A DNA stretch of 64,000 nucleotides from Eledone cirrhosa (Eukaryota): the NCBI GenBank assembly GCA_964016885.1, contig OZ024742.1:271932001-271996000 (forward strand). Direction: 5' to 3'. Within the stretch, counting starts at the first letter, position 1. Each line of letters begins with the position of its first letter. Below the pieces are notes generated by a model. It saw only the letters and a list, made by a program, of their open reading frames with translations. It searched no databases and was not told the origin of the DNA. The position numbers were made by a program, and so were the translations under genes. Of the stretch, positions 1,587-61,897 are shown in pieces.

Positions 1587-1766
1587 GTGGATTGGCAGTA
1601 TCGGTAGAGGGTCTGACGCCATGCTTTCCAGCATAGTTACTTCCCTTTACGATCTGAGTTCAAATCCCGCCGAGGTTGACTTTGCCTTTCATGCTTACGG
1701 GGTCGATAAAATAAAGTACCAGTAATGTACTGGGTAATTGCTGGCCTTGTGCCTAAAGTAGAAACA
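1587..1766 (+). mobile_element. tRNA-type SINE, full length, with 19-bp TSD
   Basis: A-box TGGCAGTATCGG, B-box GAGTTCAAATCC, central GACTTTGCCTTTCAT..CGGGGTCGATAAAATAAAGTACCAG (recalled as MetaSINE-like core, unverified). TSD ATTATTTTTATTTTTTACG at 1568-1586 and 1767-1785. Confidence 0.9.
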
Positions 1767-1792
1767 ATTATTTTTATTTTTTACGCTCTTTC

Positions 1793-2703
1793 CTACCTTG
1801 GCGTTCTATAGAAGATTAGTGGAGGGGAAGTGCGACGACGTACTTGGGGAAAATCTAGGCGTCGACGAAAATCAACTAGCCAATCTCTTCGGAAGAACTT
1901 TCGGGCCGGGTTCTATGGACAACTTCCATAAATCCCTCGACTGGCAGTGCTAACGAGGAGCTTTGCCAGTTCGGGATAAACTCTACAGGCATGAAAGTGC
2001 TGTCAGCCGGGCATGTCCGAGATGCACGCAAGGCGACAAAACCGTCCTGCCCGCACTGGTCCAGTGTCCGAGCATTGCTGACGTGTGGGTTTATGTCGAA
2101 CACCTGCTGTCGCGTGTAGGACGGATCCGGCTATCATCTGTGTCCATCGTGAGTATTGCACCGCCCTCTTCCTTTAGGCGGGAAGAGCAGGCAGTTTTTA
2201 TGCCTCTGGTGGCCATGGCGAAAGAGATAGTATGGTGGACACGTTTGAAAGGGCTGAAGATGAGCACTTACCTCTTCGGTGATGCACTGATTAACTTTTT
2301 CAAATTTCATTTGAAAAGGAAAATCAGGGTAGAGAGGGAAGTGCTCTCTTTCCAGCACTTTGTTGAAAGATGGGTGAGAGAAGCAAGAATGGCTCGAATG
2401 AATGGGTCTACTCTTAGTATGTGTCTGTAAATTAAAGGTGGAAAACTGCGAGAGGGCACTTGCCCTGGTGGTCAGAGTCACCGTGGCTTTTTTAATGGGT
2501 TTTCTCCACGAATATCCCTCGAAAGTATCCCCCCTATTGGGGAATTTTTCATTCTTTCCTTCTTTGTTACATCCTCTGCTTTTTGTTTTACACGCAGAAA
2601 TGCCCATCTGTACCGTCCTGTATTGTCCTGTATTGTCCTGTATTGTCCTGTTTTGTCCTTAATGTCTTACTTTGTGTAAACCTTTGTGGTTAATAATGAA
2701 AGC
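1793..2703 (+). mobile_element. Tx1-clade LINE, 5'-truncated (ORF2 C-terminus plus 3' UTR)
   Basis: ORF 1963-2430 has a zf-RVT-like CPRC..TVLPALVQCP; closely matches the 3' ends of the copies at 7780 and 30776; followed by (TTA)n. Confidence 0.9.
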
Positions 2704-2734: not shown

Positions 2735-2822
2735 ATTATTGTTTCTGAGATATATGCCGAGTGTCTTCCTGACACCTAGGGCAAATAAATTCAAAGTGTG
2801 CATTGGTAAGCCAGTTAATATA
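2735..2822 (-). mobile_element. Short 3'-end fragment of Dong/R4 subfamily C
   Basis: Reverse complement of ~54643-54729 (TTAACTGGCTTACCAATGCACACT...GTCAGGAAGACACTCG...TCTCAGAAACAATAAT); lies tail-to-tail with the Tx1 copy across a TTA tract. Confidence 0.85.
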
Positions 2823-3663
2823 GCATATTGATTATAATTATTATTTTTATTGGCAAGGAATTCTAATTGCAGAATGATCGTAGCCAAAACGGAAAGTAAA
2901 ATATTAAACGGTTGACTGAATGCGATAAGAGGAATGGACTGCGTTATGATAGAAAGTGGGAAAATATAGCAACAAATACAAGGAGAAATATCACTGTTCT
3001 GAAAAATATCAACTAACATCATCAGTAATAGCAAAACAGAAATCATTCATGTCATTGAAATTACGATTGATAATATTTGCCAAATATTTTATCTATGGGA
3101 AAAATTTAGAAATAGATATAGTAGTTGACATAACCCCCTCTAGTAAGTGTCAAGATGAATAGAAAACACATCTTCCAAACGATAAGAATTATGAAAATAA
3201 ACAATGAATATGTGCATGCATACACACACAGGCACTCACATACATGCATATACACACATGCATACACACATATGAAAACACACACACACACATATATATA
3301 CGTGCACACACACACATACACACAAATATATACATATAAGAACAAAGAAGTTTCGTTTACATGTATTTATGATATTACTGGATATCGAAATGTTTCGCAG
3401 ATATTTGGTTTAAGGTCTCTATGGAAGTTGTGGGCCCTCAACAGTATCAATTTTCTGGTCAGACTGATAGTTCAGTAAAAGCCGAAGTGTTTGTGGTGAT
3501 ATGTGAAATATTGGTTATGTATAAACATCAGCTCTATTTATTTTGGTGTGGTGTGTTCGTATGTAGGCGTTTCAGTGCGGAGCATGCCTACTTGTGTATG
3601 TATAGGTATATGTAAACGTGTATATATTTGTGTTTATGCCTATCTATTCATTCCAAGTGTGTG

Positions 3664-4774: not shown

Positions 4775-4953
4775 TGTTACTACTTTTGGAACAAGGCCAG
4801 CAATTACACAGTACATTACTGGTACTTTATTTTATCGACCCCGTAGGGATGAAAGCAAAGTTAACCTCGGTGGGATTTGAACTCAGATCGTAACGGGACG
4901 TAACTATGTTGGAAAGCATGGCGTCCGACTCTCTACCGATACTGCCAATCCAT
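4775..4953 (-). mobile_element. tRNA-type SINE (same family)
   Basis: Reverse complement of 1587-1766. Confidence 0.9.
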
Positions 4954-5104
4954 ATCTAACAGGAGTGGAAGTTTAACCTAAATGTGAACATCTAAGTAGC
5001 CCCAATATATATAGTTATAGCATTAGAGTTTAATACTAGAGAAATTATGTCAGGCGTACTACATTTTAAGGCACACCCATTACACTCAAGCTAGAGTAAA
5101 TAAT

Positions 5105-5343
5105 TGTTTCTACGTTTGGCACAAGGTCAGCAATTATGCCAGTGCATTACTGTAAATAATTGTTTCTACTATTGGCACAAGGCCAGCAATTACCCAGTAC
5201 ATTAATGGTACTTTATGTTATCGACCCCGTAAGGATGAAAGGCAAAGCTAACCTCGGCGTGATTTGAACTCAGAATGGCAAGGGCAGTAACTCTATGCGT
5301 CAAAGTATGGCGTCCGAACCTCTACCGATACTGCCAATCCACA
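5105..5343 (-). mobile_element. tRNA-type SINE (5161-5343) plus an extra tandem copy of its 3' tail (5105-5152)
   Basis: Same family; the tail TGTTTCTAC..TGGCACAAGG..CAGCAATTA occurs twice. Confidence 0.85.
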
Positions 5344-6124: not shown

Positions 6125-7745
6125 TTTAGAGAGGTGCATCCTCGCGAAGTGGAGAGAATGCTCAGCTGATGTCCTAAACCCGATTATAAAAGCCTCTTCG
6201 AATGTACATGGGGTGTATTTGGGAGCGGTGTCAAATCTCTGACAGGCTGATATCACAAGAGCAGTTGAAATGATCAAATGTGGCAAATCCGATGGGGAAG
6301 ATGAAATCCGGACCAGGATGATACAAGCCTTTAAAAGAGATGGAATTCGCTGGCTACCTATTGTGTGCAGGGTGGCCTGGATGGCTTGAAAGGCACTGAA
6401 GCATTGGCAATCGGGATTGATCATCCCAATTTTCAAAGAGGGAGGCAATTAGACAGGAATGTCCTTGTTAAGCATTCTCGGGAAGGAGTCTGGCAAATAA
6501 ATGCAGAGAGATCGTTGGGTCCAAGCTAACTGAATAACAGTGTGATTTTCGCCACGGACAGAGCACAGCTGATCAAATATTCACACTGACACAGATATCC
6601 AAAACATCGTGGGAGTATTGTCAAGAAGTATATTCTTCTTTTGTCGAGCTTGAGAAGTCATATGACCGCGTCCATAGGGACCTGGTATGGAAGGCAGTGC
6701 AGGAGTATGGGATTGGTGATCAGTTTCTTGCTGCCCTGATGTCTCTATACGAATACCCGAGTATTCGTGTTCGGACAAATAGTGCTATATCGAATGTGGG
6801 AGTCGGATTTCACCGAAAGGTGCGTACTGTCACCTCTTATGTTTATTATTTACATGAAAAGGGCAGTGGATTGGCAGTATCGGTAGAGGGTCGGACGCCA
6901 TGCTTTGACGCATAGAGTTTCGGCCCTTTCCATTCTCAGTTGCCTTTCATCCTTACGGGGTCGATAAAATAAAGTACCAGTAATGTACTGGGTAATTGCT
7001 GGCCTTGTGCCAAAGGTAGAAACAATTATTTACATGAAAAGGTTTGAAATGCACAGCCGGGTTGTAAGTTGTATCATGGCTGACGGGTGTAACATCAGTC
7101 AGCTGGAATTTGCAGACGACGTAGTTTTACTCAACTAGACAGAAGATGATCTTCGACTTGCACTTGATGGGTTTCATGCCGAGTGCTACATGGCTAAACT
7201 GCAAATCACTGATGCGATGCCTACGCAGTACACGATACATGTTAATGATTTTACACTGAAGCAGGTAGAGTAGTTCAAGTAACTCGGGGCTGTGTTCACG
7301 AGTGATGGGAATGAGGCGGCTAAATTAAGTGCAAGAATTGCAAAAGCTGGTGCAGTAATGCGCCAGCTTCAGCGTTCTGTAATCAAAGGAAAGGTGGAAG
7401 GCATAAAAGCCAAATTCGCTGTATTCAGTTCGTTTTTCTTTTCGTGCCAAACATTACCTATGATCATGAATCTTGGGTAATGACCGAAAGAATAAGACAG
7501 ACAATACAAGTGACCGAATTGGGACTCCTCCGAAGCGTCTTCGGAGTAACGTTACCCGATAAATGCGTAGCTCCGGGATGAGAGAGTCTCTCCAGGTACA
7601 GCCACTACTACACTGAATTGAGAGATCACAGATCCAATAATACGGGTATGTGGTTAGAATGACTCAGGAAACGTCGCTGGGTAGATTTTAGAGTCGAAAA
7701 CAACAGTTTGAAAACCCAGGTGTAGATCTCGAGCAAGGGAGTCAG
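6125..7745 (+). mobile_element. RTE-clade LINE, degenerate RT and C-terminus, interrupted by a SINE
   Basis: Hand translation gives GKSDGEDEI, WQSGLIIPIFKEG, QCDFRHGQSTADQIFTL, YDRVHRDLVW..QEYGI, VLSPLMFIIYM, LEFADDVVLL and TYDHESWVMT; many stops and frameshifts. Confidence 0.85.
6863..7024 (+). mobile_element. tRNA-type SINE inserted in the RTE RT, 18-bp TSD, B-box region deleted
   Basis: TSD ATTATTTACATGAAAAGG at 6845-6862 and 7025-7042. Confidence 0.9.
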
Positions 7746-7779
7746 GAATTATAATAATCATAATAATAATAATAATATT

Positions 7780-10700
7780 GATTTATTTATTAACCACAAG
7801 GGTTTACATAAGGTGGGACATTAAGGACAGTACAGGACAATACAGGGCGGTACAAATGGGCATTTCTGAGTGTAAAAAAAACAAGAAACAGAGGATGTAA
7901 TAATAGAACAATGAAAAAATTCCCCAATAGGGGTGGGGAGACTTCCGAGAGACATTCGTGGAGAAAGCCCATTAAAAAGCCACAGTGAATCTGACCACCA
8001 GGGCAAGTGCCCTCTCCCAGTTTTTCACCTTTAATTTGCAGACACATACTCAGAGTAGGCCCATTCACTCGGGCCATTCTTGCCTCTCTCACCCATCTTT
8101 CAACAAAATGCTGGGAAGAGAGCACTTCCATTTCTACCCGGATTTTCCTTTTCAAATGAAATTTGAAAAGGTTAATCAGGCATCACCGAAGAGGTAAGTG
8201 CTCGTCTTCAGCTCTTTCAAACGTGTCCACCATACTATCTCTTTCGCCATGGCCACCTGACAGATAAAAACTGCTTGCCCTTCCGACTAAAATGAGGGCG
8301 GGGCAATACTCACGATGGACTGAGCTGATAGCGGGATCCGTCCCACACGCGAAAGCAGGTGTTCGACATAAACCCTCAAGTCAGCAATGCTCGGACACTG
8401 GACGAGTGCGTGCAGGACGGTTTTGTCGCCCTGCGCGCATCTCGGACAGGCCCGGCTGACGGCACCTCCATGCCTGTAGAGATTATCACGAACTGTCAAA
8501 GCTCCTCGGTAGCACTGCCAGGCCAGGGATTTCTGAAAGTTGTCCATAGGCCCCGGCCCTAAAGTTCTTCCGATGAGATTGGCTAGTTGATTTTTGTCGA
8601 CGCCTAGGGTTTCCCCAAGTAGGTCGTCGCTCTTCCCCTCCACTAATCCTCTATAGAACGCCAAGGTGGAGTTTCCACCGATCACATTGCCCGATTAGTC
8701 GAGGGCTATGAGCGCCTGAAGACATTCCAGTCTCCAAGCGCTCCCTCTCAGTCTTCACTTGACCCAGGACTGCAGCTCCGTCAAGGAGACGAGCTGGAGA
8801 AAGACGCGTCTAGCAAACGGAGACCACACCTGATCACCGTCGAGGAAGAGGCGGAGATGTCGTAGCCTGAGCGCGTGTCTGCGCATCATCAGCCACGGCA
8901 TTCCCAGCCCTCCACGTAGCGGGTGTTGACAGCTGATGGACCGCCTGACCATCGGAGCGCGTCCCTTCCACAAAAAGCGAAAGAGCAAACGCTCCAGCGC
9001 AGTCAGGCGGGGCTTAGGACAAGGTACGACGGTCAGGCGGTAGTAGATGACGGACGCGATATACGCGTTAGCCACCTCCGCTCGACCTTTCAGGGATAGC
9101 TTCCTCTCGGCCCATTTCTGGGTGAGAGAAGCCACCCTGCTCGTCACCTCGTCCCAGTTTTTGTCCGTCTGGAGGTCTGGACCGAACCAGAACCCGAGCA
9201 ATTTAACTGGTCCGTCCGTCCAGCGCCCGACGACGCTGTTGTACGGCATGGACCTGCCTCTCCAGGTGCCGAGCTGCAGGCCCACTGACTTTTCCTGGTT
9301 GATCATTGGTCGTATTCTCTTAGTGTAGTGCCGATCGCCTCGATGTGTTTGGCGTTCGACACCACTACGGTGACATCGTCCGCATGTGCTGACACGGATC
9401 TTAAGCATCCTAGTTCGCACGGGACCCCACTCGACGTCCACAGTTTGTGCAGTAATGCCACGAGAGTCAATACCTACAAGAGGGACGAGAAGGGACATCT
9501 TTGGCGGACCGAGCGCATGATGTTGAACGGTTCCGAAAGGTGACCGTTCACTCTCACCACTGAGCAGATGTCGCTGTGCATGGCAGCGATCCAGCTTCTT
9601 AAGAGGGACCCAAAGCCAGCCGCCCTCAGGACTGCCGCTAGGTAACGATGGTCGACACTATCGAAAGGTTTCGACTGATCTAAATTGATAAATGACCCAC
9701 CCGTGCCAGGTTCCCTAGTCACCTCTTTGCCAACCTCTTTGCTAGCATCTTGGCCCAAATCTTGAACTCTCTGTTTAGCAGAGTTATGGGCCTAAAATTA
9801 TCTATGTTAACCCCCTTGTTCGGATCCTTTCTCAGCAGCACCACAGCTCCTCGGCTCACAGAGCTGGGAATTCTCCCGTTCTGTTGCCAGTTGCAGTAGA
9901 CGTCCGCCAAGAAGCCTCCGAACAAATCTGGCATCTGTACGTAAAGTTCATAGGGCAGACCATCCAAACCAGTCGAGTTATCCCTTGTGCAGCCAGTCAT
10001 TGCCTCCCGTACTTCAGCGGCTGTTATCGGCTTTTCGCAACACTCCGTCTCAGTGACCAAGAGTCGCGGCAGTCCGTCGAGGTAGACACTAAAGTCCACC
10101 CCTCGATCCGGCCCGCCGCTGCCACCGAACAACTGAACGAAGTGTCGCTGAAAAGCTTCACACATTTGCCCGGGATCGAGTAGCATGCGCCCGTCGTGGT
10201 CCACCAAAGACCGGATCATGGTTTGTTGCCACGACGCGCCTCCGCCACTCGGGTCCATTGAACGGCTTTCGTCCCCTCGTGTCTGAGAGCACGCACCCTC
10301 GCTCTGACAACGCAGCCTTCGTGCTTTGCATTGAAGAATTGGTCAAGGGCCAATTTCGCCGCAAGTATGTCGGTTGCAATGCCTTTGCTAAGCGCCTCGT
10401 CTAATTTTCTAACTAATTCTCCCTCTGCTCTATTTTTGTCTATATCTAAATACTTACTAAACCTAATGGACTCTATTCTAATTGCTCTTTTCAGAGCAAA
10501 CCACCACTTGTTGTTGACGATGGCCCCCGTCAACGCCCACTTAACTAGTTCGCTAATCCGGTCTCTGTTGGCCTTGCGCGCTGGTAAAGACGCGTTTAGC
10601 TTCCAGTAACCGGGTCCTCGTCTATGAAGCCTATCTCAGTCAAGCACACAGATCACGAATTTGTGGTCCGTGTAGCTGACTATCTTCAATTGTGGACAGC

Positions 10701-13496
10701 CTATGCTAGACCTATCTATTTCCCTACAAACTACTCTATCTAGATATGATCTGGATGACCCTATGCGATTTTTCCAAGTCCTCAATTGCACATTCGGGAA
10801 ATCCAATCGGTACCTGTCAGACAGTTCAAAACGCCTGAGCAGTTTGGTGAGGCTCTTGCACACTCCTCCTCTATCCGCTAATCCCACACAGTCCCAGCGT
10901 GCATCTAAGATCCCGTTCCAGTCGCCCACTAACACTAAAGAGCGGGACGTTCCAAGAAAGGTCTCCAGACGCCGGAAGAAATCAGGCCATCCGGAAAGTT
11001 TGCCCGTCTCCGCTGGTCACGTCTAGCACCACGAACTTACCTTCTGGGTCCAGGAAGATGGCCCGGATGGCGAGATACAAACCTCTCCGAAAAAGTACAG
11101 CAACTCCCACCCACCCACCCACAGATCCCGGACGGCTGGGAAATGCGTACACCTCGTAGCCGCCGAAGATCGGTGCGAAGGCCCGTGCTTCGGAGATTCT
11201 GGTCTCGCTGATGGCCACTACATCTATGTTTAGTGACCTGAGGTCGTTGAGCAGGTGGCTCTGCTTCCATGACGACCCCAAGCCACGCGCATTTATGCTG
11301 CCTATTCTGAGAGAGGTCATGTTGAAATGGAGTGGAAAAGATTGGAAAGACCACTTACCACGTAGAGGAAGGATGTTTTGTCCATCCTTTTCACTGCTTG
11401 TGGCCTTTTCCGGAAGGATGTCCTTATAAATCCTCCTGGAGAGTGTTTGTCGGAAGTCTCCGATGTCTTTGGGGAATTTTTGTTTTAGTGTCGTGTACGT
11501 TTTCTCTGTGTTGCTAGTGATTTGTATGTGTGGAGGTGGTGTGAACTTTTCGGTTGTTGTGTAGTCTTTTTCTGTGATGCTGGTGTTGTGTTGCATGTAG
11601 TGTAATAATTGGTTGTTGTTCAAATTTAATGCTGTGTAGTGTGTATTGTTTTGGTTGTTTTGTTTTGTTTGCTTTTTTTGTGGGTTTGTTTCTGTTACGC
11701 TTTTTGGTGACTTTTGTGGTGTTGGTGATGGTGGTGTTGGGGTTAATGATGGTGATGGTGTTGGTGTTTGTGGTTACGGGGTTGGTGATGCTGGTGTGGA
11801 TGGTGGCATATCTGTCCTAACTTTTTTGTTTGTTAATTTATTTGTTTCCCTCTGTATTTTGTTTTTGGAGGGGTAAGGAAGAGAATTTTTTCTTTTTTGG
11901 TTTCTTTTTTTTTCCTGATACTGTTTCCCACTCCTCGTCGTCACAATCTGCCTCCAGTTGCGATAAGCCGGGGAGTGGAAAATCCTCCACAGGCGTTGGT
12001 TTTGATTGTAGCGTGGTGGATGGTGTAGGCGCTGGTGCTAGTTCTGGGGCGTTGGGTGGTGGTGGTTTAGGTTTTGCTACTGTTGCTGGGGTTGTTGCTG
12101 TTACAGTTGCTTCTGTTGTTGCTGCTACAGTTGTTGCTGCCATTTCTGCTGCTGGTGGTGTTTATGGTTGAGTCACTGGGGTGGGTAAGAGAGGTGGCCT
12201 CAACTTTTTAGCCTGAGGGCAGAAAGCCCTTCGTTGGGTTCCTTCACCACAAACGACACACCTAGGTCTTCTGCCTTCGACGATTACGGTGAGGTGGCTG
12301 CCGTCAGTGAGGTCTATTACCTCTGGGATCTCCTCAATGGGTTTATGGTCCGCTTGGATCAGGAGTTCCATCCCAGATCCGGACCAGTTCTCCTGCTTTT
12401 CTTTTGCTATTTCTATTATGCTGGTGTTGGTCTCGATGCCGCTGAGGACGGCAGCCATTAGCCACTGAATTTCGATGGCCGGTGGAACGTGGGTCACCCT
12501 GATCTTCACAAGTCTCTGGCCACAATAGCTTGGGACGAGTGTGAAGTCGTCATTCTTAATGGGGCCATGGAGTGTTCTCTGGCCTCCTGTGGTGTTTCAA
12601 AGAACACGTCCACGTCTGATGTGGGTTTTTTTTGGCCACACATGTCCCAAAGCTTTTTGGATTTGGGACTCGGATGCCCGTTCCACTCGGCGCGATTTTA
12701 TGTTAATTGTCCGATAAGACACGGTGCATAAGCGCCGATGCTCCATTTTATTATGTGCAGAGTTTGACCCAGTATCCATCTTACCTTACCATTATTTTGG
12801 CTTCTTCTAATTCCTCCTGAGTTACCTGTATCTCTTCGCACGTTTTTGCTACACTGGCAAAACTCACGGTAGTTTTCTTAATTTCATTGTTGCTGTTGTT
12901 GTTATCGTTATTTTTGTTATTGTTAATTTTAGTTGCAGTTGTGGTGGTGGTGGCGTCAGTGGTGTTCGGTGTGGAAGGGTTCATTTTGGTTGAATTCATT
13001 TCGATATCACGAGTTAATTTATTTTTTCTTTTGTTTCTGTTTTCGCTGTGCTGCTGGTGGTGGGTGTTGTCGTTGTGGTGGTGGTGGTGGGGGTTGTCGC
13101 CACGGTGGGGGTGACGGCTTTAACAGCTGCAGTCATTGGTAAATTGCGGGAAATGAATGTCTGGCTGAGACAAATTAAAAATATTGCTACTGCTTATATT
13201 TGGCAAACGTAGTAATATTTACAATGGTGGTGTCGGTGAGAGGTGTTAGCTTGTGACGAAGGTGTGAATCTGAGTCAGCCATGATTTTTCAAAGAAATTT
13301 TTTTATTTGATAATTATAAAAAGTTTAAATTTTGGGCTCAAGGCCCCAATATTTTTGAGTGTCCTTTTCAGAAATCAATGTATGTGTACTTATATACAGT
13401 TAACAATAAACATTTTCCATAAATGCAATTTTAAACAACTGAAAATAACAAACCTTTGCGGAGCTCACGATGATACGATTTACTACATAGGTCGCC
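7780..13496 (-). mobile_element. Full-length Tx1-clade (L1 group) LINE, subfamily A, flanked by (TAA)n on both sides; frameshifted
   Basis: ORF1 from ~12999 with zinc knuckle RPRCVVCGEGTQRRAFCP; APE motifs GSINARG, VVAISET, LVGDWN, SYLDR, YTDH; RT motifs GLDGLPYE, NFRPITLLN, LDQSKPFD, ADDV; C-terminal CPRC..H...QC; 5' end GGCGAC abuts the TTA repeats. Confidence 0.93.
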
Positions 13497-13734
13497 AATA
13501 ATAATAATAATAATAATAATAAGAGAAGAAGACGCACGAGGTGGTAGAAGGTCATAGAATCGCTCCGGTAAGTTTTTGATTTTTAACATATTCAATATGA
13601 AATAACAATTCTTAGTACAAATAACGCATAAATCTCCCAATCAAGTCTCATACAATTTCGGATCCATAATATATTGTTATATCGCTCAAATATTCAGTTC
13701 TGTATTATATATTCAAAAAAGAAAATGGTTATAA

Positions 13735-13908
13735 ATGGAAGAAAACTCCCTCTGTCTACACTATATAGAACAGCCAAATAACAGCAATTTCACCAACACC
13801 AGAAACTTGATACACCACCTACCCAAAAAAAAAGCCGCTGTGTACACTAAATATAACAGCCAGATAACGGCAATTTCACCACCACCACCGCCAATCCCAG
13901 CATCATAA
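13735..13908 (+). CDS. Putative 57-aa upstream ORF in the Dong 5' leader
   Basis: MEENSLCLHYIEQPNNSNFTNTRNLIHHLPKKKAAVYTKYNSQITAISPPPPPIPAS*; reading frame is kept in homologues at 36701-36871 and 43751-43927. Confidence 0.5.
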   Translation: MEENSLCLHYIEQPNNSNFTNTRNLIHHLPKKKAAVYTKYNSQITAISPPPPPIPAS

Positions 13909-14342
13909 TAATAATTACTATTATTATTGTCTCAAGTTTTAACAAAATGTTTAATTCCAATTTTACGGGAATATCTCAACATAGATATTAAACATACGCG
14001 ACACAAACGCATAGATACTACATATCAAAACAAAACTGGTCCACTCAACAAAACTCAGTAACGACAACGCCACCACCGCCACCACTCCATCCATCATTGC
14101 TACCACCACTATTCCCCTGTTAACTTAAGAAAGGGGAAGGTGGCGGTATCACTAGACAAGGGAGAGGCTAGCAAAAGATATAAATAGATTTACTTAGTGA
14201 CCTGGCCACCGGCTAAACGTCAACAACTATGGCACTGCTGGCTCCCCCCTTCCTCACCAACAATATAAAAAGCCCCAGCACCACCATCGACATAGCCAAC
14301 AACAATAACAGGCAACTTCAGCAAAAAGTATATTATATTATT

Positions 14343-14389
14343 GTAATGCACTGGGTGATTGCTGGCCTTGTGCCTGGAGTGGAGACACT
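14343..14389 (+). mobile_element. 3'-tail fragment of the SINE inside the Dong-A leader
   Basis: GTAATGCACTGGGTGATTGCTGGCCTTGTGCC.. followed by TTATTATTA. Confidence 0.7.
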
Positions 14390-18420: not shown

Positions 18421-18421
<1 letters not shown>

Positions 18422-18457
<36 letters not shown>

Positions 18458-22010: not shown

Positions 22011-22254
22011 ATATTTTTCGTCATGCACTTTTCACTGAAAACATGCCTAATGATTCTTCCAAGTGTGAAGCATTATATATGCTGGACAATCTTATGATAG
22101 GCTCAGCTGGCAGCCGAATCAGTCTTACATGCGATAGTAGATTTTTTACATAAACCCATAGGTCAGCGATACTCGAACACTAGACGACTGCGTGGAGGAC
22201 AGTCTGGTCTCCCTGCGAGCATCTCGGACTGGCTAGGCTTACAGCACTTCCATA

Positions 22255-22432
22255 CTAGTAAATTTTATTTCTAACTGGCAATGCTTCCGGGTAGCAATGA
22301 CAGGCCAGGGATGTCTGGAAGTTTTCAATTTGCCCGGGAACGAACATCCTACGGAAAATAATAGTTTGTTGGCTTTCGTCGACACCAGGAGTTTCACCAA
22401 AGACGTCGTCACTCCTGCCCCTCATTAACCTA
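22255..22432 (-). mobile_element. Diverged Tx1 ORF2 fragment
   Basis: GRSDDVFGETPGVDE..FQTSLACHCY..ALPVRNKIY matches the Tx1 C-terminal region. Confidence 0.8.
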
Positions 22433-22658: not shown

Positions 22659-25051
<2,393 letters not shown>

Positions 25052-28574: not shown

Positions 28575-28632
<58 letters not shown>

Positions 28633-28717
28633 ATAATAATAATATTGAAGACTAAAATCCAAAGAGGGCTCGATAAGGATAAATATATATCAAATATATA
28701 AGAACCGTAGAGCAAAT

Positions 28718-30348: not shown

Positions 30349-30775
30349 CATTACGAATGTAAGATGGTAAATGTGGGTGAGGGGTTCAACATGTTGACAT
30401 TCAATTGAATTCACTTGGTTAAAATTAGAAACAGAAAATGTTCTTACAATACAAAACAGTGATTACCTGGAATAGTTTATATGTGTGTCGGTGGGTGTTA
30501 AAGTGAGATTAATTTAAGCTGAAATGTGAATTTATGTGTGGGTATAGAATTAATGTTTTATATTCTGGTATGTATGTCTGTGTTTTTACCCCTGGGATCA
30601 AGAAAACACAACTGATTTTTAGCGGTTTTAGAAAAAAACAAGGATAAATATATTTAGAAAAAAAAAAATGAAAATATAGATATAACATTGATTGAAAGAG
30701 GTTCTGGAAGGTGATGCAGAGATTGGGATCTTGGAGTATTTGCAAGAGAAAATAAATAATAATAATAATAATAAT

Positions 30776-33700
30776 GCTTTCTTTATTAACCACAAGGGTT
30801 TACATAAAGTAGACCTTAAGGACAGTACAGGACAATACAGAACGTACAAATGGGCATTTCTGGTGTAAAAAAACAAAAACAGAGGATGTAACAAAAGAAT
30901 AACAATGAAAAATTCCCCATACGGGGGAGACTTCGGAGGGACATTCGTGGAGAAAGCCCATTAAATAGCCACAGTGACCCTGACAACCAGGGCAAGTGCC
31001 CTCTCCCAGTTTTCCACCTTTAATTTACAGACACATACTCAGAGTAGGCCATTCTTGCCTCTCTCACCCATCTTTCAACAAAATGCTGGGAAGAGAGCAC
31101 TTCCGTCTCTACCCTGATTTTCCTTTTCAAATGAAATTTGAAAAGGTTAATCAGAGCAACATCGAAGAGGTAAGTGCTCGTCTTCAGCCCTTTCAAACGT
31201 GTCCACCATAATATCTATTTCGCCATGGCCACCAGACAGATGAAAAATTGCCTGCCCTGCCCGGCTAAAGGAAGGGGGCGGGGCAATCCTCACGATGGAC
31301 TCAGCTGATAGCTGGATCCGTCCTAAACGCGACAGCAGGTGTTCGACATAAACCCACAAGTCAGCAATGCTCGGACACTGGACGAGTACGTGCAGGACGG
31401 TTTCGTCGCCCTGCTCGCATCTCAGACATGCCCGGCTGACGGCACCTCCATGCCTGTAGTGTTTATCCTGAACTGGCAAACCTGCTCGGTAGCACTGCCA
31501 GGCCAGAGATTTCTGAAAGTTGTCCATAGGGCCCGGCCCTAAAGTTCTTCCGAAGAGTTGGCTAGTTGATTTTCGTCGACACCTAGAGTTTCACCAAGTA
31601 GGTCGTCGCTCTTCCCCTCCACTAATCCTCTACAGAAAGCCAAGGTGGAGTTTCCACCGATCACATTGCCCGATTGGTCGAGGGCTGTGAGCGCCTGAAG
31701 ACATTCCAGTCTCCAAGCGCTCCCTCTCGGGCTTCGCTTCACCCAGGACAGCAGCTCCGTCAAGGAGACGAGCTGGGGAAAGACGCGTCTAGCAAACGGC
31801 GACCACACCTGAGCACCGTCGAGGAAGAGGTCGTAGCCTGAGCGCGTGTCTGGGCATCATCAGCAACGGCTTGCCCAGCCGTCGACGTAGCGTGTAATGA
31901 CAGCAGATGGACTGCCTGACCATCGGAGCGCGTCCCTTCCACAAAAAGCGAAAGAGCAAACGCTCCAGCGCAATCAGGGGGGGCTTAGGACAAGTTACGA
32001 TGGTCAGGCGGTAGTAGATCACGGACGCGATGTACGCGTTAGCCACCTCCGTTCGACCTTTCAGGGATAGCTTCCTCTCCGCCCATTTCTGGGTGAGAGA
32101 AGCCACCCTGCTCGTCACTTCGTCCCAGTTTTTTTCCGTTTGGAGGTCCGGACCGAAACAGACCCCTAGCAATTTAACCGGTCCGTCCGTCCGGCGCCCG
32201 ACGAAGCTGTTGGACGGCATGGACCTGTCTCTCCAGGTACCTAGCTGCAGGCCCACTGACTTTTCCTGGTTGATCATTGCTCTTGAAACCGCTCCGTATT
32301 CTCTCAATATAGTGCCGATCCCCTCGATGTATTTGGCGTTCGACACCTCTACGGTGACATCGTCCGCATATGCTGAAACGGATCTTCCGCATCCTAGTTC
32401 GCGCGGTATCCCCCTCAACGTCTCCATGTTGTGCAGTAATGGCTCGATAGTCTATACGTACAAGAGGGACGAGAGGGGACATCCCTGGCGGATCGAGCGG
32501 ACTTAAAGGTGACCGTTCACTCTCAACACAGAGCACATGTCGCTGTGCATGGCAGCGATCCAGCCTCTGAAGACGGGCCCAAAGCCAGCCACCCTCAGGA
32601 AGCCACTAGGTAAACATGGTCGACCCTATCGAAAGCTTTCGACTGATCTAAATTGATAAAAGACCCACCGGTGCCAGGTTCCCTAGCTAGCCTCCCTACG
32701 ATGTATCGCATGAGGTGGAGGTTGGCGTGCATTTATCTGTCGGGAATGGCGCATGTCTGCGCCTCTCCCACCAGACAACCAACAAGCGCCAACCTCTTTG
32801 CTAGCATCTTGGCCAAAATCTTGAACTCTGTGTTTAGCAGTGTTATGGGCCTAAAATTATCTATGTTATCCCCCTTGTTCGGATCCTTTCTCAGCAGCGC
32901 CACAGCTCCTCGGCTCACAGAGCTGGGAATTCTCCTTTTCTGTTGCCAGTTGCAGTAGACGTCCGCCAAGAGGCCCCCTAACAAGTATGGCATATGTACG
33001 TAAAGTTCATAAGTCAGACCATCCAAACCTGGCGATTTAAGGCTTGTGCAGCCAGTCATTGCCTCCCGTACTTCAGCGGCTGTTATCGGCTTTTAGCAAC
33101 ACTCCGCGTCAGTGGGCGAGAGCCTCGGCAGTCTTATCGGTGTAGACACTAACGTCCACCCCTCGATCCGGCCCGCCGATGCCCCCGAACAGTTGAGCGA
33201 AGTGTCGCTGAAAAGCTTCACACATTTGCCCGGGATTGAGTAGCATGCGCCCGTCGTGGTCCAGCAAAGACAGGATCGGGGCTTTGTTGCCACGACGCAC
33301 CTCCGCCACTCGGGACCATTGAACGGCTTTCGTCCGCTCGTGTCTGAGAGCACCCAACCTAGCTCTGACAATGAAGCCTTCGTCCTTTGCATTGAAGAAT
33401 TGGTCATGGGCGAATTTCTCGGCAAGTACGTCGTTCGCGCTGCCTTTGCTAAGCGCCTCGTCTAATGTTCTAACTAGATCTCCATCTGCTCTATTTTCCT
33501 CTATTGCTAAAGCCTTACTAAACCCAATGGACTCTATTCTAATCGCTCTTTTCAGAGCAAACCACCACTTGTTGTTGACGAGGACCCGTCAACGGCCGCT
33601 TTACTAATTTGCTAATCCTGTCTCTGTAGACCTTACGCCCTGGTAAGGACGCGTTTGGCTTCCAGTAGCCGGGTCTTCGTCTATGAAGCCTATCTAAGTC

Positions 33701-36575
33701 AAGCACACAGATCACGAATTTGTGATCCGTGTAGCTGATTATCTTGAATTGTGGACAGCCTATGCTAGACCTATCTATTTCCCTACAAAATACTCTATCT
33801 AGATATGATCTGGATGACCCTATGCGATTTGTACAAGTCCAGATTGGCACATTCGGGAAATCTAATCGGTACCTATCAGACAATTCAAAACGCTTGAGCA
33901 GTTTGGTGAGGCTCATGCACACTCCTCCCCTATCCGCTAATCCCACACAGTCCTAGTATGCATCTAAGATCCCCTTCCAGTCGCCCACTAACACTAAAGG
34001 TCTCCAGACGCCAGAAGAAATCACGCCGCCCTGCTCCTGTTGGAGCATAGACGGCCAGTAGCCTGAAAGTTTGCACGTCTCCGCTGGTCACGTCTAGCGC
34101 CACCAACTTACCTTCTGGGTCCAGGAAGATGCCCCGTATGGCGAGATCCAAACCTATCCGAAAAACCACAGCAACTCCGCCCCCCGATCCAGGACGTACA
34201 CATGATGCGTACACTTCATAGCCGCCGAAGATCGGTGCGAAGGCCCGTGCTTCGGAGATTCTGGTCTCGTTGATGGCCACTATATCTATGTTTAGTGAGC
34301 TAAGGTCGTTGAGCAGGTGGCCCTGCTTCCATGACGACCCCAAGCCACGCGCATTTATGCTGCCTATTTTGAGTGAGGTCCTGTTGAAATGGAGTGGAAA
34401 ATATGGGAAAGACCACTTACCTTACTTCTCTTAGAGGATGGATGGTTTCTCCATACTTTTGACTGCTTGTGGCCTCCTCCGGAAGGATGTCCTTATAAAT
34501 CCTCCTGGAGAGTGCTTGTCGGAAGTCTCCGATGTCTTTGGGGAATTTTTGTTTTAGTGTCATGTACGTTTTCTGTGTGATGCGAGTGATTTGTATGTGT
34601 GGAGGTGGTGTGAACTTTTGGCGTGTTGTGTAGTCTTCTTCTGTGATGCTGGTGTTGTGTTGGATGTAGTGTAATAGTTGGTTGTTGTTCAAATTTAATC
34701 CTGTGTAGTGTGTATCGTTTTGGTTGTTTTGTTTTGTTTGCGTTTGTTGTGGGTTTGTTTGTTTCGCTTTTTGGAGACTTTTGTGGTTATTGTGATGGTG
34801 GTGTTGGGGTTTAATGATGGTGATAGTATTGGTGTTTGTGGTGCTGGGGTTGGTGATGCTAGGTGTGGATGGTGGCATAACTTTTTAGTTTGATAGTTTA
34901 ATTTTTTCCCTCTGTATTTTGTTTTTGGAGGGTGAAGGAAGGGGATTTTTACTTTTTTGGCATCTTTATTTATTTTTTTCTGATACAGTTTCCCACTCCT
35001 CGTTGTCACAATATATCTCCAGTTGCGATAGGTCGGGTAGTGGCAAATACTCCTCAGGCGTTCGTTTTGTTTGTGGCGTGCTGTATGGTGGGGCGCTGGT
35101 GCTAGTTCTGGCGCGTTGGGTGGTGGTTGTGTTGGTTTTGCTACTGTTGCTGGGTTTGTTACTGCTACAGTTGCTTCTGTTGATTCTGCTACAGTTGCTG
35201 CTGCCATTTCTGCTGCTGGTGTTGTTAATGGTTGAGTCACTGTGTTGGGTAAGAGAGGTGGCCTCAACTGTTTAGCCTGAGGGCAGAAAGATTTTAGGTG
35301 GGTTCATTCACCACAAACGACACACCTAGGCCTTCTACCCTCGACGATTACGGTGAAGTGGCTGTCGTCAGTGAGGTCTATTACCTCCGGGATTACCTCA
35401 ATGCTTTTTTGTTTAGCTTGCATCAGGAACTCCATCCCAGGTCCGGACCAGTTCTCCTGCTTTTCTTTTCATATTTCAATTATTTTGGTGTTGGGCTCCA
35501 TGCCGGCGAGGACGGCATCCATTAGCTAGGAAATTTCGATGGCCAGTGGAACGTGGGTCAACCTGATCTTCACGAGTCTCTGGTCACAATAACTTGGGAC
35601 GAGTGTGAAGTCGTCGCTTCTTAATGGGGCCATGTAGTTCTTTCTGGCCTCCTGTGGTGTTCCAAAGAACACGTCCACGATTCCATATTTCTGGCCACAT
35701 CTGATATGGGGTTTTTTCGACCACACATGTGCCAAAGATTTTTGGATTTGGGACTCGGATGACCGATCCACTCGGCGCGATTTTGTATTAATCGTCCGAC
35801 AAGACACGGTGCATAGGCGCCGATGCTCCATTTTATTAGGTGTGTGTGTGTTGGAGGGGGGCTGACCCTGTCCCAATCTTTCTTTACCATTCTCTTGGCT
35901 TCATTTAATTCCTCCTGATTTACCTCGATTGTTTCGCATTTCTTGGCTTCTTTGAACGACACATTTGCGGTGGTGTTGATTGTGTTGCTGTTGTTGCTGT
36001 TGTTGTTATTGTTATTTTTGTTATTGTTATTTTTAGTTTCAGTTGTGGTGGTGGTGGAGTCAGTGGTGTTCGGTGTGGAGGAGTCGATTATGAGTGAATC
36101 CATTTCGATGTCACGAGATAATCATTTATTTTTTTCTTTTGTTTCTGTTGTCGCTGTGGTGGTGGTGGGGGTGTCGGCTTTAACACCTGAAGTTATTGGT
36201 AATGGCGGGAAATGAATGTCTGCAAGAGACAAATTTAAATTATTGCTACTGCTTATATTTTTAGTGTTAGCAAACCTAGTAATATTTACAATGTTGGTGT
36301 TGGTGTGAGGTGTTAGTTTGTGAGGAAGGGGGTCAGCTTGGTGTGGCTGTGAGTCGTCCATGATTTTTTCAAAGAAATGTTTTGTTTGATAATTATAAAA
36401 GTTTTAATTTTGGGCTCAAGGCCCCAATTTTTTTGAGTGTCCTTTTCAGAAAGTAATATAAGTGAACTTATAAACACTTAACAACAAACATTTTCCGTAA
36501 ATGGCAATTTGAACCAACAGAAAACAACAACATTTTACGGAGCTCACGATAATACGATTTCATACGTATGTCGCC
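30776..36575 (-). mobile_element. Full-length Tx1-clade LINE, subfamily A copy 2, flanked by (TAA)n; frameshifted
   Basis: Collinear with 7780-13496; same GGCGAC 5' end; YADDV RT motif; knuckle CVVC..THLKSFC; 79-aa uORF at 36122-36361. Confidence 0.93.
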
Positions 36576-36650
<75 letters not shown>

Positions 36651-39555
36651 CATTTTATAATGTATTATAGATTTTGTATTCAAAAAGAAAATGGTTTTAA
36701 ATGGAAGAAAACCCCCTCTGTCTACACTATATAGAACAGCCAAATAACAGCAATTTCACCAACATCAGAAACTAGATACACCACCTACCGCATCACCCCT
36801 CTGTGTACACTAAACACAACAGCCCGATAACGACAATTTCACCACCACCACCACCACCAATCTCAGCATAATAATAATAATTACTATTACTATTGCCTCA
36901 AGTTTTAGTTTTAACAAAATGTTTAATTCCAATATTATGGGTAAATGTTAACACATATACGCGAGTAACGAACATTTCACTAAAGATAATTTCACGACCA
37001 ATACCACCAACACTACCACGATGAAAACCCTAGTCAAGTCGACTCAAATTTCTACTCGAACTTCAACACCATCACTACAGTAATACGACCACATCACCAC
37101 CACCGCTGCCTCACTATCGCTACCGCCGCTATTCTCTCCCACTACCTCCTGCCAGTTGCTGCTAGCACAGCACCGCCACCGCCGCCGCTGCCTCAATATC
37201 ACTTCCGCCGCTATTCTCTCCCGCTGTCCCCTGCTACATTGTAGAATTCCCACTAAAAGAGGAAAACATCAAAATATATAAATAGACTGAATTGATGACC
37301 TGGTCAAAATAAAAAAAAAACAATCAAAATCAAGTTTTAGTTTAAAAAAAATGTTTAATTCCAATATTATGGATAAATGTCAACACATATACGCGACTAA
37401 CGATAATTTCACTAAAGATAATTTCACCACCAATACCACCACCACTACCACGATGAAAACTCTGGTCACGTCGACTCAAATTTCTACTCCAACTTCAACA
37501 CAATCACTACAGTAATACGACCACATCACCACCACTGCTGCTTAACTATCGCTACCGCCGCTATTCTCTCCCACTACCTCCTGCTACTTGCTGCTAGCAC
37601 AGCACCGCCACCGCCGCTGCTGCCTCAATATCACTACCGCCGCTAATCTCTCCCGCTATCCCCTACATTGTAGAATTCCCACTAAAAGAGGAAAACATCA
37701 AAATATGTAAATAGACTGGAGAAAAAAAATCAAAATCAAAGCAGCACAGCAACAACGAAAAACATAAAGGAAATAAAAATGAAGAGAAAAACAAACGGAC
37801 GGACAGAGAAGAGAAGGGAAAAACTAAGTCAGACATTCAAACACTACATTACAATGAAACTTATGCTTATTCATTTTTTGGGGTTTTTTCTGCCTGTTTG
37901 TTTGTTTGTTTGTTTGGGTTCGTCTACAGCGTGATAATGCCACACAAAAGTCACGTGGAGTGACGAAACCACCGGAGACAAGTAATTCACCGGTGGTTAT
38001 GTAACCATACATTCGCCAATCCTGGATAAGAGTGTTTAAATGTCGTACCTAAACAGTTCGAATAACGGTGAAATGGAGACTAGAATGTCATGTGACAGAC
38101 TCTCACCCAACAGGTGATCCCTGGCTCAGCAACATGGGCCTGGCTGTCAAACAAATACTGCTGGTGTCGGTGGAAGAAGAAGAAGGAAAGGGACCAGAAC
38201 CAACTGGACGAAAGAATTGAATAGAACTGTTATGCAATGTTACCTGAAGAGTAACCCCAAGGAGAAAGGCTATAGGAAAAGGATGCATAACATCTGGAAC
38301 GAGATTGGTCCATTTAAATTAGATGAACAAAAACTGGCCGGGAAGGCTCGGGTAATAAGAACTAATGGGTGGATAAGCGAGCTGGAACTGGAGGAACTGG
38401 GCAGAGAGATTAGCTTGGAGATGGAGGGTGGGGTAAGCCAGGCAAACGAGCCAGTGGGAAATGAAGGTGAAGAGGTCGAGAGAACGGAGGAACCACCCGA
38501 AACAGACAATGATCTGAATGCTGAGATAAATAATACCTGGAACAGAGATACGGCCACTGAGGAGATGAATGCTGACAGGCTAGGACAAGATTTGGTAGAT
38601 ATCCTAAACTTAGTGGTAGATGAATTGAACAATGATAGTGGGAGACCTATGAACCTAAGATTTGTAGACAGGAAAAAGTTAAAGAAACAACAGCTAAGGT
38701 AAACAAAGTCATCCCATACCTTGAGGCGAGGAGCCTTCACCAGTGCAACAATATCCTCAAAGCAACAGCAAATACGGTGAGGAAACTACTTGGTATAAAA
38801 GCGAGAGCAAACAACAGACAAGAAAGTGCAGAGCCTTGGTGGAAGAAACGACTGAGTGGTCAAATCAGGGAAATGAGAAATGACTTTGGAAAGCTTGAGT
38901 CCCTACTGAATGGGACACTAAAAAATATAGACACTAAAAATAGACTGGAAATAAAGTACAAAACTAGGAGGAAAAAGCTAAATATTATCATAGAGGAACT
39001 GAAGCAACGCATTGTAGCAAAGAATGCAAAAATCTGGCGATACGAGAACAGAGTCAGCCAGTATAGACAGAACCGCATATTCGACAACAACCAGAAGATG
39101 CTGTTTGAACAGCTTGAAGGGAAAGAAAGAGGCAACGACTTGATCCCTGAGGCTAAACAAACTAAAACATTCTGGAGAGGAATGTGGGAGCAGGATGTTA
39201 AACATAATGGCCAGGCAGTGTGGATTGAGACAGTACAGAAGGAGATCAGTGAACAGGCACGCCAATTAACCGATACCAGGACTTAAAGTGGGCGCTAAAA
39301 AGGATTTGGAACTGCCATGAAGTCAAAGTGGTCCCGATTGTCATAGGCGCACTAGGTACTATCTCAAAAAGATTCAGGGATGGTTAAAGAAAATTGGCCC
39401 CTTCACGCTTTTTGGAACGCTTCAAAAGGCATGCTTGCTGGGAACAGCAAGAACCCTCCGATACGTCCTGAATATCTGTGCTGCAGGTAGTGGCTTGATA
39501 TTCATTTCAACAAAATTTCCAGTTAACTAACATCAGTGACTGAGACTCAAAGAAC
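36651..39555 (+). mobile_element. Dong/R4 LINE subfamily B, internally deleted, with a ~430-bp tandem duplication in the leader
   Basis: Near-identical to 43522-48284, but at ~39263 it jumps from the equivalent of ~46008 to ~47994 (RT and most of the RLE lost); leader duplication at 36898 and 37331. Confidence 0.9.
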
Positions 39556-39594
39556 TATAATAATAATAATGATAACAATAATAATAATAATAAT

Positions 39595-42500: not shown

Positions 42501-42753
42501 AAAAGTGGGCAACCCACACTATTTCTATTTATTTTCGTGATGAAGATCCTGTCTATATACGATCTAGATGACCCCTTTCGGTTGGTGCATGTCCCAACTG
42601 GCATATTGGGGAATTCTAATCGATACCTGTCAGACAGGTATCCTTACCTCGAGATCCAGTCCTTTCCTAAGCCGCACTGCAACCCCCCCCCCCATTCCCG
42701 GCCTGCTAACAGATACGAAGATCTGCTGACGGCAATCACATCCATTCTGTAGC
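39595..42753 (-). mobile_element. Tx1-clade LINE subfamily B, 5'-truncated within the APE domain
   Basis: SYIDR, GYWKLN, SPGLDGLPYE, NFRPITLL, LDQSKAF, YADDI and FQKSLAWQCYRGALPV; 3' end CCCTTGTGGCTAATAAA followed by (TTA)n. Confidence 0.9.
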
Positions 42754-43487
42754 AAAAAGCTACAGAAGGAATGTTAATGGCTGCGCAAGAGCAGGCCATC
42801 AAAACGAAGCGGGTAAAACACCATATTTACAAGGAGGAGGCTAGCCCACTGTGTAGAATTTGTGGAGAGAGAGAAGACTCTGGCTCACATTATATCCGAG
42901 TGTAAACACCTAGCCCAGGCTCACTATAAAGGCTGGAGACATGATGTGATGGGAAGGGTGATCCACTGGCACCTATGCGAAGTAAACAATTTACCACGTT
43001 ATGAGCATAAGCCAGCGTCGGTGATTGAAAACGATCAGATGAAGGTGCTATGGGATTTTAGCATACAGACGGAGAAGAAATTAGAACACAATAGACCTGA
43101 TTTGGTGGTTTTAGACAAGAAAAAAAGATCATGCCTGATTGTAGATGTAGCCTGCCCATTTGACACAAGAGTGCAAGAAAAAGAGAGGGAGAAAATTAAC
43201 CGATACCAGGACTTAAAGTGGGAGGTAAAAACTATTTGGAACTTCCATGAAGTAAAGGTCGTCCCGATTGTCATCGGTGCATTAGGTACCATCTCAAAGA
43301 GATTCCAAGGATGGTTAAAGAAGATTAGTCCAGCCCCACTTTTGGGAACACTTCAAAAGGCATGGTGCTGGAAACAGCAAGAACCCTCCGATACGTACTG
43401 GATATCTGAGGCTGCAAGTAGCGGCTTGATATTCATTTCAACAAACTTTCAAGTTAAATAACATCAATGACTGAGACTCCAAGAATA
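42754..43487 (+). mobile_element. Dong/R4 subfamily B 3' fragment (CCHC plus RLE)
   Basis: ORF 42862-43461 has HIISEC, RHD, RPDLVV, DVACPFD and KINRY; TAA-rich tail. Confidence 0.9.
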
Positions 43488-51300: not shown

Positions 51301-51594
51301 GCACCAACACCCTTTATTCGCTCCTTAGGATTACTAAGGATTGAGCCTTTGCTTCCTGGCGTGTGGCAAAAGCAACGGCCTCGGCGGCATATTTCTTGCC
51401 TCGAGTGATATGCGTTTTCCGCTGCCACACTGATACTAAGGCTTTTTGTATTTGAGCCTCTGTAGCTCTTTCAACCCTACATGATTTTGTGCTTACTGTA
51501 CGGATTTCGAAAAATTCTTCGGCTGCCTTCCAGATTGCTCGCTGTCCTGTTTTCGACACCATCTTCCTTGCTTCTTGTAATTCTTCAATTGTTA
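48310..51594 (-). mobile_element. Tx1-clade LINE subfamily C, multiply deleted, 5'-truncated in ORF1
   Basis: ORF1 remnant EELQEARKMV..RVERATEAQIQKAL; APE, RT and zinc-finger remnants; 3' end CCCTTGTGGCCAATAAAGAAATC followed by (ATT)n. Confidence 0.9.
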
Positions 51595-51600
51595 TAATAA

Positions 51601-61715: not shown

Positions 61716-61897
61716 GCGGTGGATTGGCAGTATTGGTAGAGGGTCGGACGCCATGCTTTCCAGCATAGTTAAGTCCCTTTACGATCTGGTTTCAAATCCC
61801 GCCGAGGTTGACTTTGCCTTTCATCCTTGCGGGGTCGATAAAATAAAGTACCAGTAATCACTGGATAATTGCTGGCCTTGTGCCTAAAGCAGAAAAA
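61716..61897 (+). mobile_element. tRNA-type SINE
   Basis: Same family as 1587-1766. Confidence 0.9.

Follow-up and report, generated by a model that had tools for sequence, protein, structure and literature searches.

A 64,000-nucleotide stretch of Eledone cirrhosa DNA (contig OZ024742.1, positions 271,932,001 to 271,996,000; hereafter the window) was analysed for retrotransposons of the Tx1 type and for their insertion sites. Seven related Tx1-type pieces (copies A to E, fragments F and G; Table 1) were found in this repeat-rich eukaryotic DNA, every one of them broken and dead. With modest confidence, they are attributed to a Tx1-like lineage that prefers the short site T|ATTATT, for which TAA microsatellites are hot spots, that recognises a 3' hairpin and that moves a short interspersed element (SINE) in trans. 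The anatomy and polarity of the junctions, the selection between lineages, the target duplications and the covariation of the hairpin were observed directly in the window.

Both full-length copies, A and B, have TAA arrays directly at both ends, as the preliminary description had reported. The 5' end of copy A (GGCGAC, at 13496) lies directly on (AAT)8.7 and that of copy B (GGCGAC, at 36575) behind (ATT)24; full-length 5' junctions therefore lie behind (ATT)n in two cases of two (8 and 24 units). All five intact 3' ends (A, B, C, D and E) carry C(C/T)TTGTGG(C/T)(C/T)AATAA followed by ATTATT and continue as (ATT)n, poly(A) being absent; AATAAA is present in four of them. The 3' array next to copy C is (ATT)6 at 2704-2721. 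Copies D and E are tail-to-tail with elements of a second kind, termed R4/Dong-like below: D with copy X across a TAA array at 39557-39594, and E with the element at 43522-48282 across (AAT)9 at 48283-48309.

Runs of at least four ATT units numbered 14 in the window, in 13 tracts. Seven tracts touch a Tx1 end, and ATT is on the Tx1 sense strand in all seven; five of these also touch an R4-like element. The remaining tracts touch an R4-like element only (two), follow a SINE (one), are internal to an R4-like piece (one) or fall in none of these classes (two). As chance background, 197 of 128,000 strand-positions lie in, or no more than 3 nt behind, a run of at least four ATT units. Two of two full-length 5' junctions is far beyond this naive null, which is partly circular because the elements help to make arrays. 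(ATT)n was found on at least one side of five of the seven copies and on both sides of two; the 3' arrays may be tails. A Tx1 family is called specific when more than 20% of its flanks share a sequence type (PMC4494074), and the flanks of the window copies exceed this share. Neither (TC)n nor (TTC)n was found at any of the 13 Tx1 junctions, and searches of the whole window with Rfam (gathering score) and ARAGORN returned no RNA gene match and no tRNA gene.

Copies A, B and C share about 90% identity and diverge near-neutrally, with a ratio of nonsynonymous to synonymous divergence (dN/dS) of 0.51-0.95. They form a star, with 32, 33 and 44 private changes and 5, 3 and 2 shared changes over 863 columns, the pattern that would be expected from separate insertions. 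For A/B/C against D or E, and likewise for D against E, dN/dS was 0.26-0.34; in all comparisons across A/B/C, D, E, F and G it was 0.15-0.37. Cross-lineage values in this range therefore indicate separate master lineages that diverged under purifying selection. Between the lineages with the conserved terminus, dS was approximately 0.65-0.9 and dN/dS approximately 0.3. The earlier claim that the terminal motif is kept across three diverged subfamilies is thus borne out by the five intact 3' ends, with dN/dS separating the subfamilies.

A SINE-like repeat of approximately 190 bp with A- and B-box-like motifs was found at seven loci, giving 8 ends (S1 to S7, with S3a and S3b counted apart). Target duplications of 9-19 bp were found at four of the 8 ends, each starting ATTATTT (background 0.00041 per site). 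The search was limited to starts no more than 3 nt from the SINE end, and the upstream copy is host DNA. Locus S4 interrupts an RT (reverse transcriptase) frame which we take to be RTE-like from its motifs, and residues of the interrupted frame are repeated on both sides. As S4 lies in coding sequence, a single ATTATTT sufficed there and no microsatellite was needed. In S1, S4, S6 and S7 the nick is preceded by T. The RTE-like fragment itself (6200-7750, plus strand) stops at the TAA array beside copy A. It is not favoured as the partner of the SINE, because it has lost its 3' end and lies against an array of TAA polarity. The SINE comprises a tRNA-like head and a central stretch, the latter presumably resembling a Meta domain. 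Neither ARAGORN nor Rfam called a tRNA in the head. Motif searches in the searchable supplements of PMC4824008 returned nothing relevant to the SINE.

The last 25 nt of the SINE ends align with the Tx1 termini without a shift. The consensus fold of the 13 ends is a 4-bp stem with a YUUGU loop, with 88.5% of cells paired, and three of the four stem pairs have changes on both sides. Covariation was 0.59, compared with 0.25 when shuffled (0 of 500) and no more than 0.26 when slid. One stem pair is CG in all five Tx1 ends and GC in seven of the 8 SINE ends; another, AU in copies A, B and C, is GC in D, E and the SINE. The distance from the start of the loop to ATTAT is 21 nt in 10 of the 13 ends and 22-24 nt in the remaining three. 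Out of 260 ATTAT run-starts, 21 had YTTGT 19-26 nt upstream, and 11 of these had a stem of at least 3 bp; all 11 are Tx1 or SINE ends. The 3' ends of the R4-like elements, which have TAA polarity, were not among the hairpin hits. With an end-anchored profile made from the SINE only, the Tx1 ends ranked 1, 2, 4, 8 and 17 of 252; with one made from Tx1 only, the SINE ends ranked 1-5, 13, 19 and 21 of 255. A blastn comparison of the SINE with Tx1 gave one match (60 nt at 68%, E 6e-4), tail included. From these data it is fairly likely that the SINE is moved in trans by a Tx1-type element. A joint covariance model recovered 13 of 13 ends; it was circular and was excluded as evidence.

The proposed insertion site is the short (T)T|ATTATT, written on the element sense strand, and the route would be target-primed reverse transcription. 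By analogy to PMC4176376, the protein of the second open reading frame (ORF2) would bind its own RNA through the 3' hairpin (3-4 bp stem, YUUGU loop) approximately 21 nt before the end. The target duplications suggest that the opposite strand would be nicked at 5'-AATAAT|A, a TpA step like the TTTT|AA of L1. The terminal AUUAUU of the RNA would pair with the freed AATAAT-3'OH and prime the cDNA, and poly(A) would therefore not be needed. A second-strand cut 9-19 bp away would produce the target duplication, and the SINE-like repeat, with the same hairpin, would be mobilised in trans. Human L1 inserts at TT|AAAA (PMC6007223); the T|A step would thus be kept and the pairing tract would differ. 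Site choice by the nuclease and by the RNA tail have both been discussed for RTE elements (PMC6007223), and here either may select the site. The two kinds of element would pile up in the alternating antiparallel arrays seen in the window because TAA microsatellites and R4/Dong-like TAA tails are dense in such sites.

The R4-like neighbours fall into three families, in which an RT is accompanied by a CCHC finger and a PD..D-type nuclease motif. The families at ~14500-18421 and 51600-54729 are approximately 41-48% identical in RT plus nuclease to the main family or to each other. The RTs of the neighbours score closer to R2 than to L1. A search with a neighbour RT returned no protein named Dong or R4, and the label R4/Dong-like is based on the architecture and the TAA flanks. 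Dong is taken here to belong to the R4 clade, in agreement with the Dong-R4 label of an octopus survey. In that survey, recent activity in Octopus vulgaris was reported for L1-Tx1 (13 families, 421 recent insertions) and Dong-R4 (5 families, 1129) (PMC13282606). Among molluscs, R4-Dong is almost confined to cephalopods (PMC10294476). R4-like DNA borders seven of the 13 visible Tx1 junctions, always antiparallel and with only TAA in common, and R4-like 3' ends border three of the five tails. A 24-kb pile at 30755-54729 contains three Tx1-type pieces (all minus) and four R4/Dong-like pieces (all plus), with TAA arrays between them. The 3' ends of copy X (39264-39550) and of the element at 43522-48282 (47994-48280) are 95% identical and their middles 88%; each of the two is tail-to-tail with a different Tx1 lineage.

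Several observations weigh against the proposed preference and partnership. A clean 5' array was found in none of the five truncated copies (C, D, E, F and G). The 5' flank of copy C is a degenerate ATT 12-mer 13 nt upstream. Copy E meets a headless R4-like element at TTATTAT, an ambiguous sequence that may be coding on either side. At its 5' end, copy D passes straight into the body of R4-like copy Y without ATT at the join, and it has further internal deletions near this junction. Fragment F has no ATT array at its 5' junction and fragment G no ATT at either junction. Both Tx1 5' arrays are bordered on their other side by an R4/Dong-like element. Dong is a published TAA-targeting family (PMC3812793) and could own the long arrays, which weakens the argument from arrays at both ends; the argument survives, because a head-to-head junction implies that TAA adjoined the Tx1 5' end at the arrival of either element. 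Two of the 8 SINE ends have no duplication (S2 and S3a), two have only 5-7 bp (S5 and S6), and S3b may be a tandem duplication. For the hairpin, an unanchored Tx1-only covariance model found none of the 8 SINE ends and an unanchored SINE-only model none of the five Tx1 ends (E<=10 in both cases). Local alignments gave p<0.05 in nine of 20 SINE-Tx1 pairs and p<0.01 in two, both with copy E; an unanchored window scan placed copy E sixth. The hairpin was no more stable than its shuffles (z -0.9 to +1.0) and was missing in one of seven single folds. The 13 ends represent approximately four independent lineages, and the 25 scored columns were picked after the motif had been seen. The short-motif interpretation rests on the SINE being moved by a Tx1-type element, and all of the evidence comes from one window.

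Taken literally, most copies (five of seven) lack clean 5' ATT repeats, which the preliminary description had named as telling against its claim of (ATT/TAA)n specificity. Later deletions appear to have joined D and E to headless R4 bodies at their 5' junctions; F and G are both distant fragments in which no 3' end is visible. From that claim, a preference for ATT-polarity sites is retained and strict specificity for long arrays is not. Strict specificity for long (ATT)n, as in Kibi and Koshi, with the SINE unrelated or more relaxed, is considered unlikely. It would account for the full-length copies, with 8 and 24 units on the 5' side and 6-9 units on the 3' side, and for D and E if their 5' junctions were lost by deletion as appears. 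However, copy C has its degenerate 12-mer and no array, the SINE targets are single ATTATTT sites, and a long array can either lengthen once the element is in place or be owed to the R4-like neighbour.

It is improbable that there was no targeting at all, with (ATT)n a self-made tail and the 5' arrays made by R4/Dong-like neighbours. R4-like 5' ends do border both 5' arrays and R4-like 3' ends three of the five tails, TAA targeting by Dong is published (PMC3812793), insertion of Dong into Tx1 tails alone would yield the tail-to-tail pattern, and five of seven copies have no clean 5' array. Head-to-head junctions nevertheless require TAA beside the Tx1 5' end at the arrival of either element, and the SINE duplications place ATTATTT in the DNA before insertion. 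The copy C composite, moreover, has the same ATT-like 12-mer on both sides: it recurs at 2840 beyond the 3' side, and all three of its occurrences in the window are at this composite. The earlier argument that a simple tail is not enough is upheld by the two full-length 5' junctions, the ATT polarity of seven of seven tracts and the SINE target duplications.

Still less probable is that the R4/Dong-like element is itself the target, as Tx1D is for Tx1L and a Mariner for Tx1-Mar. Transposon targeting is published for Tx1 families (PMC4494074), and the seven antiparallel junctions with R4-like DNA would agree with it. The R4-like DNA at those junctions, however, comes from two families and includes 5' ends as well as 3' ends, with TAA alone in common; the 3' sides of A and B are without R4, and SINE sites S1, S4 and S7 lie outside R4 DNA. 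That A and B are a single Tx1-(TAA)n-R4 composite, duplicated or 5'-transduced, so that the 5' array counts once, is the least probable of the alternatives: the same R4-like family lies 5' of both (pieces 86.6% identical to each other and 83.5-83.9% to a third copy) and A and B are 91.3% identical compared with 89.4-89.5% to C, but the changes in A, B and C are distributed as a star, the R4 piece next to B is ~180 nt short at its 5' end and retains a 3' tail of its own, A and B have unrelated 3' flanks, and no duplication was seen around the composite.

The domain order used to define the Tx1 clade was found in the window copies, namely two open reading frames (ORFs) with an ORF2 containing an apurinic/apyrimidinic-type endonuclease (APE), an RT and a C-terminal CCHC finger. 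In Pfam searches of ORF2, Exo_endo_phos was matched below the curated cut-off (E 1.7e-4 and 2e-3) and zf-RVT above it, and RVT_1 was found in copies B and F. The APE motifs can be aligned to those of Xenopus Tx1L, compared with which the endonuclease specificity loop is 2 residues shorter (alignment comparison only). A PDB search with the C-terminal half of the endonuclease gave no match. The ORF1 remnant had no Pfam match; the His of its knuckle is visible in copy B. In the RT region, the best named relative is an Argonauta hians protein (62% identity). P0003, a 912-aa protein used as a proxy, is 66-73% identical to copies A-F and scored 279 bits against Xenopus Tx1L, 174 against human L1 ORF2 and 63-88 against R2. 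Tx1L (YTX2_XENLA, P0212) is approximately 36% identical over the RT region.

Trees were made from subsets of 78 rows (thinned from 243 eligible proteins) and 37 rows, with no L1 sequence and no named Kibi, Koshi, Keno or Dewa sequence; copies C and G contributed no RT region to them. In the 37-row tree, the window copies, P0003 and Argonauta P0004 formed a clade (support 99). Its sister group (support 100) consists of ORF2 proteins of approximately 1150 aa (P0008, P0164, P0185 and relatives; 52-55% RT identity), some of which represent clusters of hundreds of members. Support for joining the window copies to the Tx1L set was weak (Shimodaira-Hasegawa-like approximate likelihood ratio test 71). 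The 78-row tree rooted on R4-like RTs had a very long root branch and was dropped for placement. ESM Atlas searches returned generic RT clusters only. The Tx1-type assignment made earlier is supported by domain order and RT score; the tree, drawn without L1, Kibi, Koshi, Keno and Dewa, groups the copies only weakly with Tx1L.

Like the window copies, Kibi at (TC)n, Koshi at (TTC)n and the crocodilian Tx1 families at (TTCC)n and (TTTC)n are APE-type elements with microsatellite insertion (PMC4494074). Their targets are pyrimidine-rich, whereas the window target is AT-only, of ATT polarity, and probably a short motif. The microsatellite targets of Tx1 named in the available text of that paper are TC, TTC, TTCC and TTTC; its Fig. 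3 lists more. Xenopus Tx1L likewise has two ORFs with APE and RT, but it targets the Tx1D transposon, and the window copies form a separate long-branched clade. Keno, Dewa and Mutsu target U2 snRNA genes, tRNA gene arrays and 5S genes, and none of these RNA genes was matched in the window. Dong shares the microsatellite with the window Tx1 and differs in nuclease class and in strand polarity, which is opposite (PMC3812793). It has a single ORF with a C-terminal restriction-like nuclease, whereas the window Tx1 has an N-terminal APE and its neighbours the order RT-CCHC-PD..D. Convergence of Tx1 and Dong on TAA would parallel that of Keno and Utopia on U2 genes (PMC4640811).

A Tx1 family, Tx1-Mar, has been inferred to mobilise SINEU, which has the same target (PMC4494074). 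That link is based on shared target, age and 5' heads, whereas in the window it is based on a shared 3' hairpin and its spacing. Compensatory changes in a 3' stem-loop, with a short repeat after it, are also found in ZfL2/UnaL2 (PMC4176376) and in monocot L1 with ZmSINE2/3 (PMC3747384). Unlike in these stringent pairs, the stretch common to the window SINE and Tx1 is only approximately 25 nt. Stringent pairs of the L1 group are rare, with three SINEs among >800 LINEs (long interspersed elements; PMC3747384). In MetaSINEs, including SepiaSINE2 of cuttlefish, a tRNA-derived head precedes a Meta domain of 66 bp, and no partner LINE is named for them in the available text (PMC4824008). The window SINE has a tRNA-like head and a central stretch that presumably resembles the Meta domain. 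In bivalves, the partner of Meta SINEs is Nimb or CR1-Zenon (PMC11481361).

No Tx1 element targeting ATT or TAA was found in the literature (Repbase and Dfam aside), including the available text of PMC4640811, PMC4758252, PMC3747384, PMC4824008, PMC11481361 and PMC8869645. No cephalopod Tx1-SINE pair was found there either, SINEBase aside. We think it rather unlikely, though by no means negligibly so, that the ATT target has already been catalogued. Microsatellite targeting by Tx1 elements is established; probably new are the ATT target, the convergence with a Dong-like element from the opposite strand and the probable SINE partner. A broader proposal is more doubtful and is offered tentatively: that an as yet undescribed Tx1 lineage reached the Dong target by convergence, from the opposite strand, that the two kinds of element seed each other's sites, that a hairpin replaces poly(A), and that the lineage is the partner LINE of an abundant cephalopod Meta-type SINE.

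If the proposed reading is correct, an AT-only target joins the Tx1 repertoire, together with a naturally occurring L1-like endonuclease in which the T|A nick is retained and AATAA is read in place of TTT. Such an endonuclease would help to separate the contributions of nuclease and of RNA-DNA pairing to targeting. The lineage would be a candidate partner LINE for a cephalopod SINE, MetaSINE partners being unnamed in the available text of PMC4824008, and could help to explain LINE clustering in octopus-type genomes. Recent L1-Tx1 and Dong-R4 activity in octopus (PMC13282606) makes the model testable on young copies.

Table 1. Coordinates of Tx1-type copies, junction arrays, SINE-like loci and R4/Dong-like neighbours in the window
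Feature	Position	Strand	Remarks
Copy A	7778..13496	-	Full length; both ORFs broken by stops and frameshifts
Copy A, 3' terminal hairpin	7792..7804	-	4-bp stem, CUUGU loop, then AATAAA
Copy A, ORF2 remnant	8045..11320	-	APE endonuclease, RT (ADD motif), C-terminal CCHC finger (zf-RVT)
Copy A, ORF1 remnant	11330..13282	-	Approximate boundaries; degenerate Cx2Cx4Hx4C knuckle
(ATT)n, copy A 3' end	7751..7777	-	Imperfect; tail and/or target; RTE-like fragment (+) abuts
(ATT)n, copy A 5' end	13497..13522	-	Common to 5' end of R4/Dong-like piece
Copy B	30776..36576	-	Full length, broken
(ATT)7, copy B 3' end	30755..30775	-	
(ATT)24 plus ATA, copy B 5' end	36577..36649	-	Common to R4/Dong-like copy X
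Copy C	1792..2703	+	5'-truncated; subfamily of A and B
Copy D	39595..42745	-	Second lineage
Copy E	48310..51596	-	Third lineage
Fragment F	62934..64000	+	Cut by window end
Fragment G	22081..22428	-	Distant lineage; without 3' end
S1	1587..1766	+	19-bp duplication (1568-1586, 1767-1785) starting ATTATTT; shared hairpin
S2	4775..4956	-	3' flank starts ATTAT; no duplication found
S3a and S3b	5105..5343	-	S3a, no duplication found; S3b, truncated second tail, 9-bp duplication starting ATTATTT
S4	6865..7024	+	Inside RTE-like RT frame; 18-bp duplication (6845-6862, 7025-7042) starting ATTATTT
S5	14343..14387	+	5'-truncated; TATTATT both sides
S6	61718..61897	+	ATTAT both sides (5 bp only)
S7	62108..62291	-	17-bp duplication, 1 mismatch, starting ATTATTT
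R4-like 3' piece, further family	2735..2840	-	107 bp; tail-to-tail with copy C
R4/Dong-like 5' piece	13523..14111	+	Head-to-head with copy A
R4-like element, separate family	~14500-18421	+	Ends in (TAA)12 then (AAG)n; also delimited as 14645-18457
R4/Dong-like copy X	36650..39556	+	Without ~180 nt at 5' end; internally deleted; ends in TAA
R4/Dong-like 3' piece Y	42746..43483	+	Ends in TAA at 43484-43521
R4/Dong-like element, near-complete	43522..48282	+	RT, CCHC finger, PD..D-type nuclease motif; TAA arrays both ends
R4-like element, separate family	~51600-54729	+	

Other features of the window were recorded as follows. An open frame of 224 aa at 29136-29810 (plus strand) is Penelope-type GIY-YIG-like by eye and had a weak, irrelevant Pfam match (E 0.066). 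The region at 57400-59500 (minus strand) is strongly G-skewed and GC-rich and resembles a decayed Penelope-like RT by eye. Remnants at 20200-20900 resemble, also by eye, a Helitron/PIF1-type helicase in a motif. A short repeat family is present at 22973-23624, 28574-29138 and 55623-55953, with all copies adjoining (TA)n tracts, in both orientations. A (TTTAATT) array of 36.7 units with 96% matches is located at 54979-55234.

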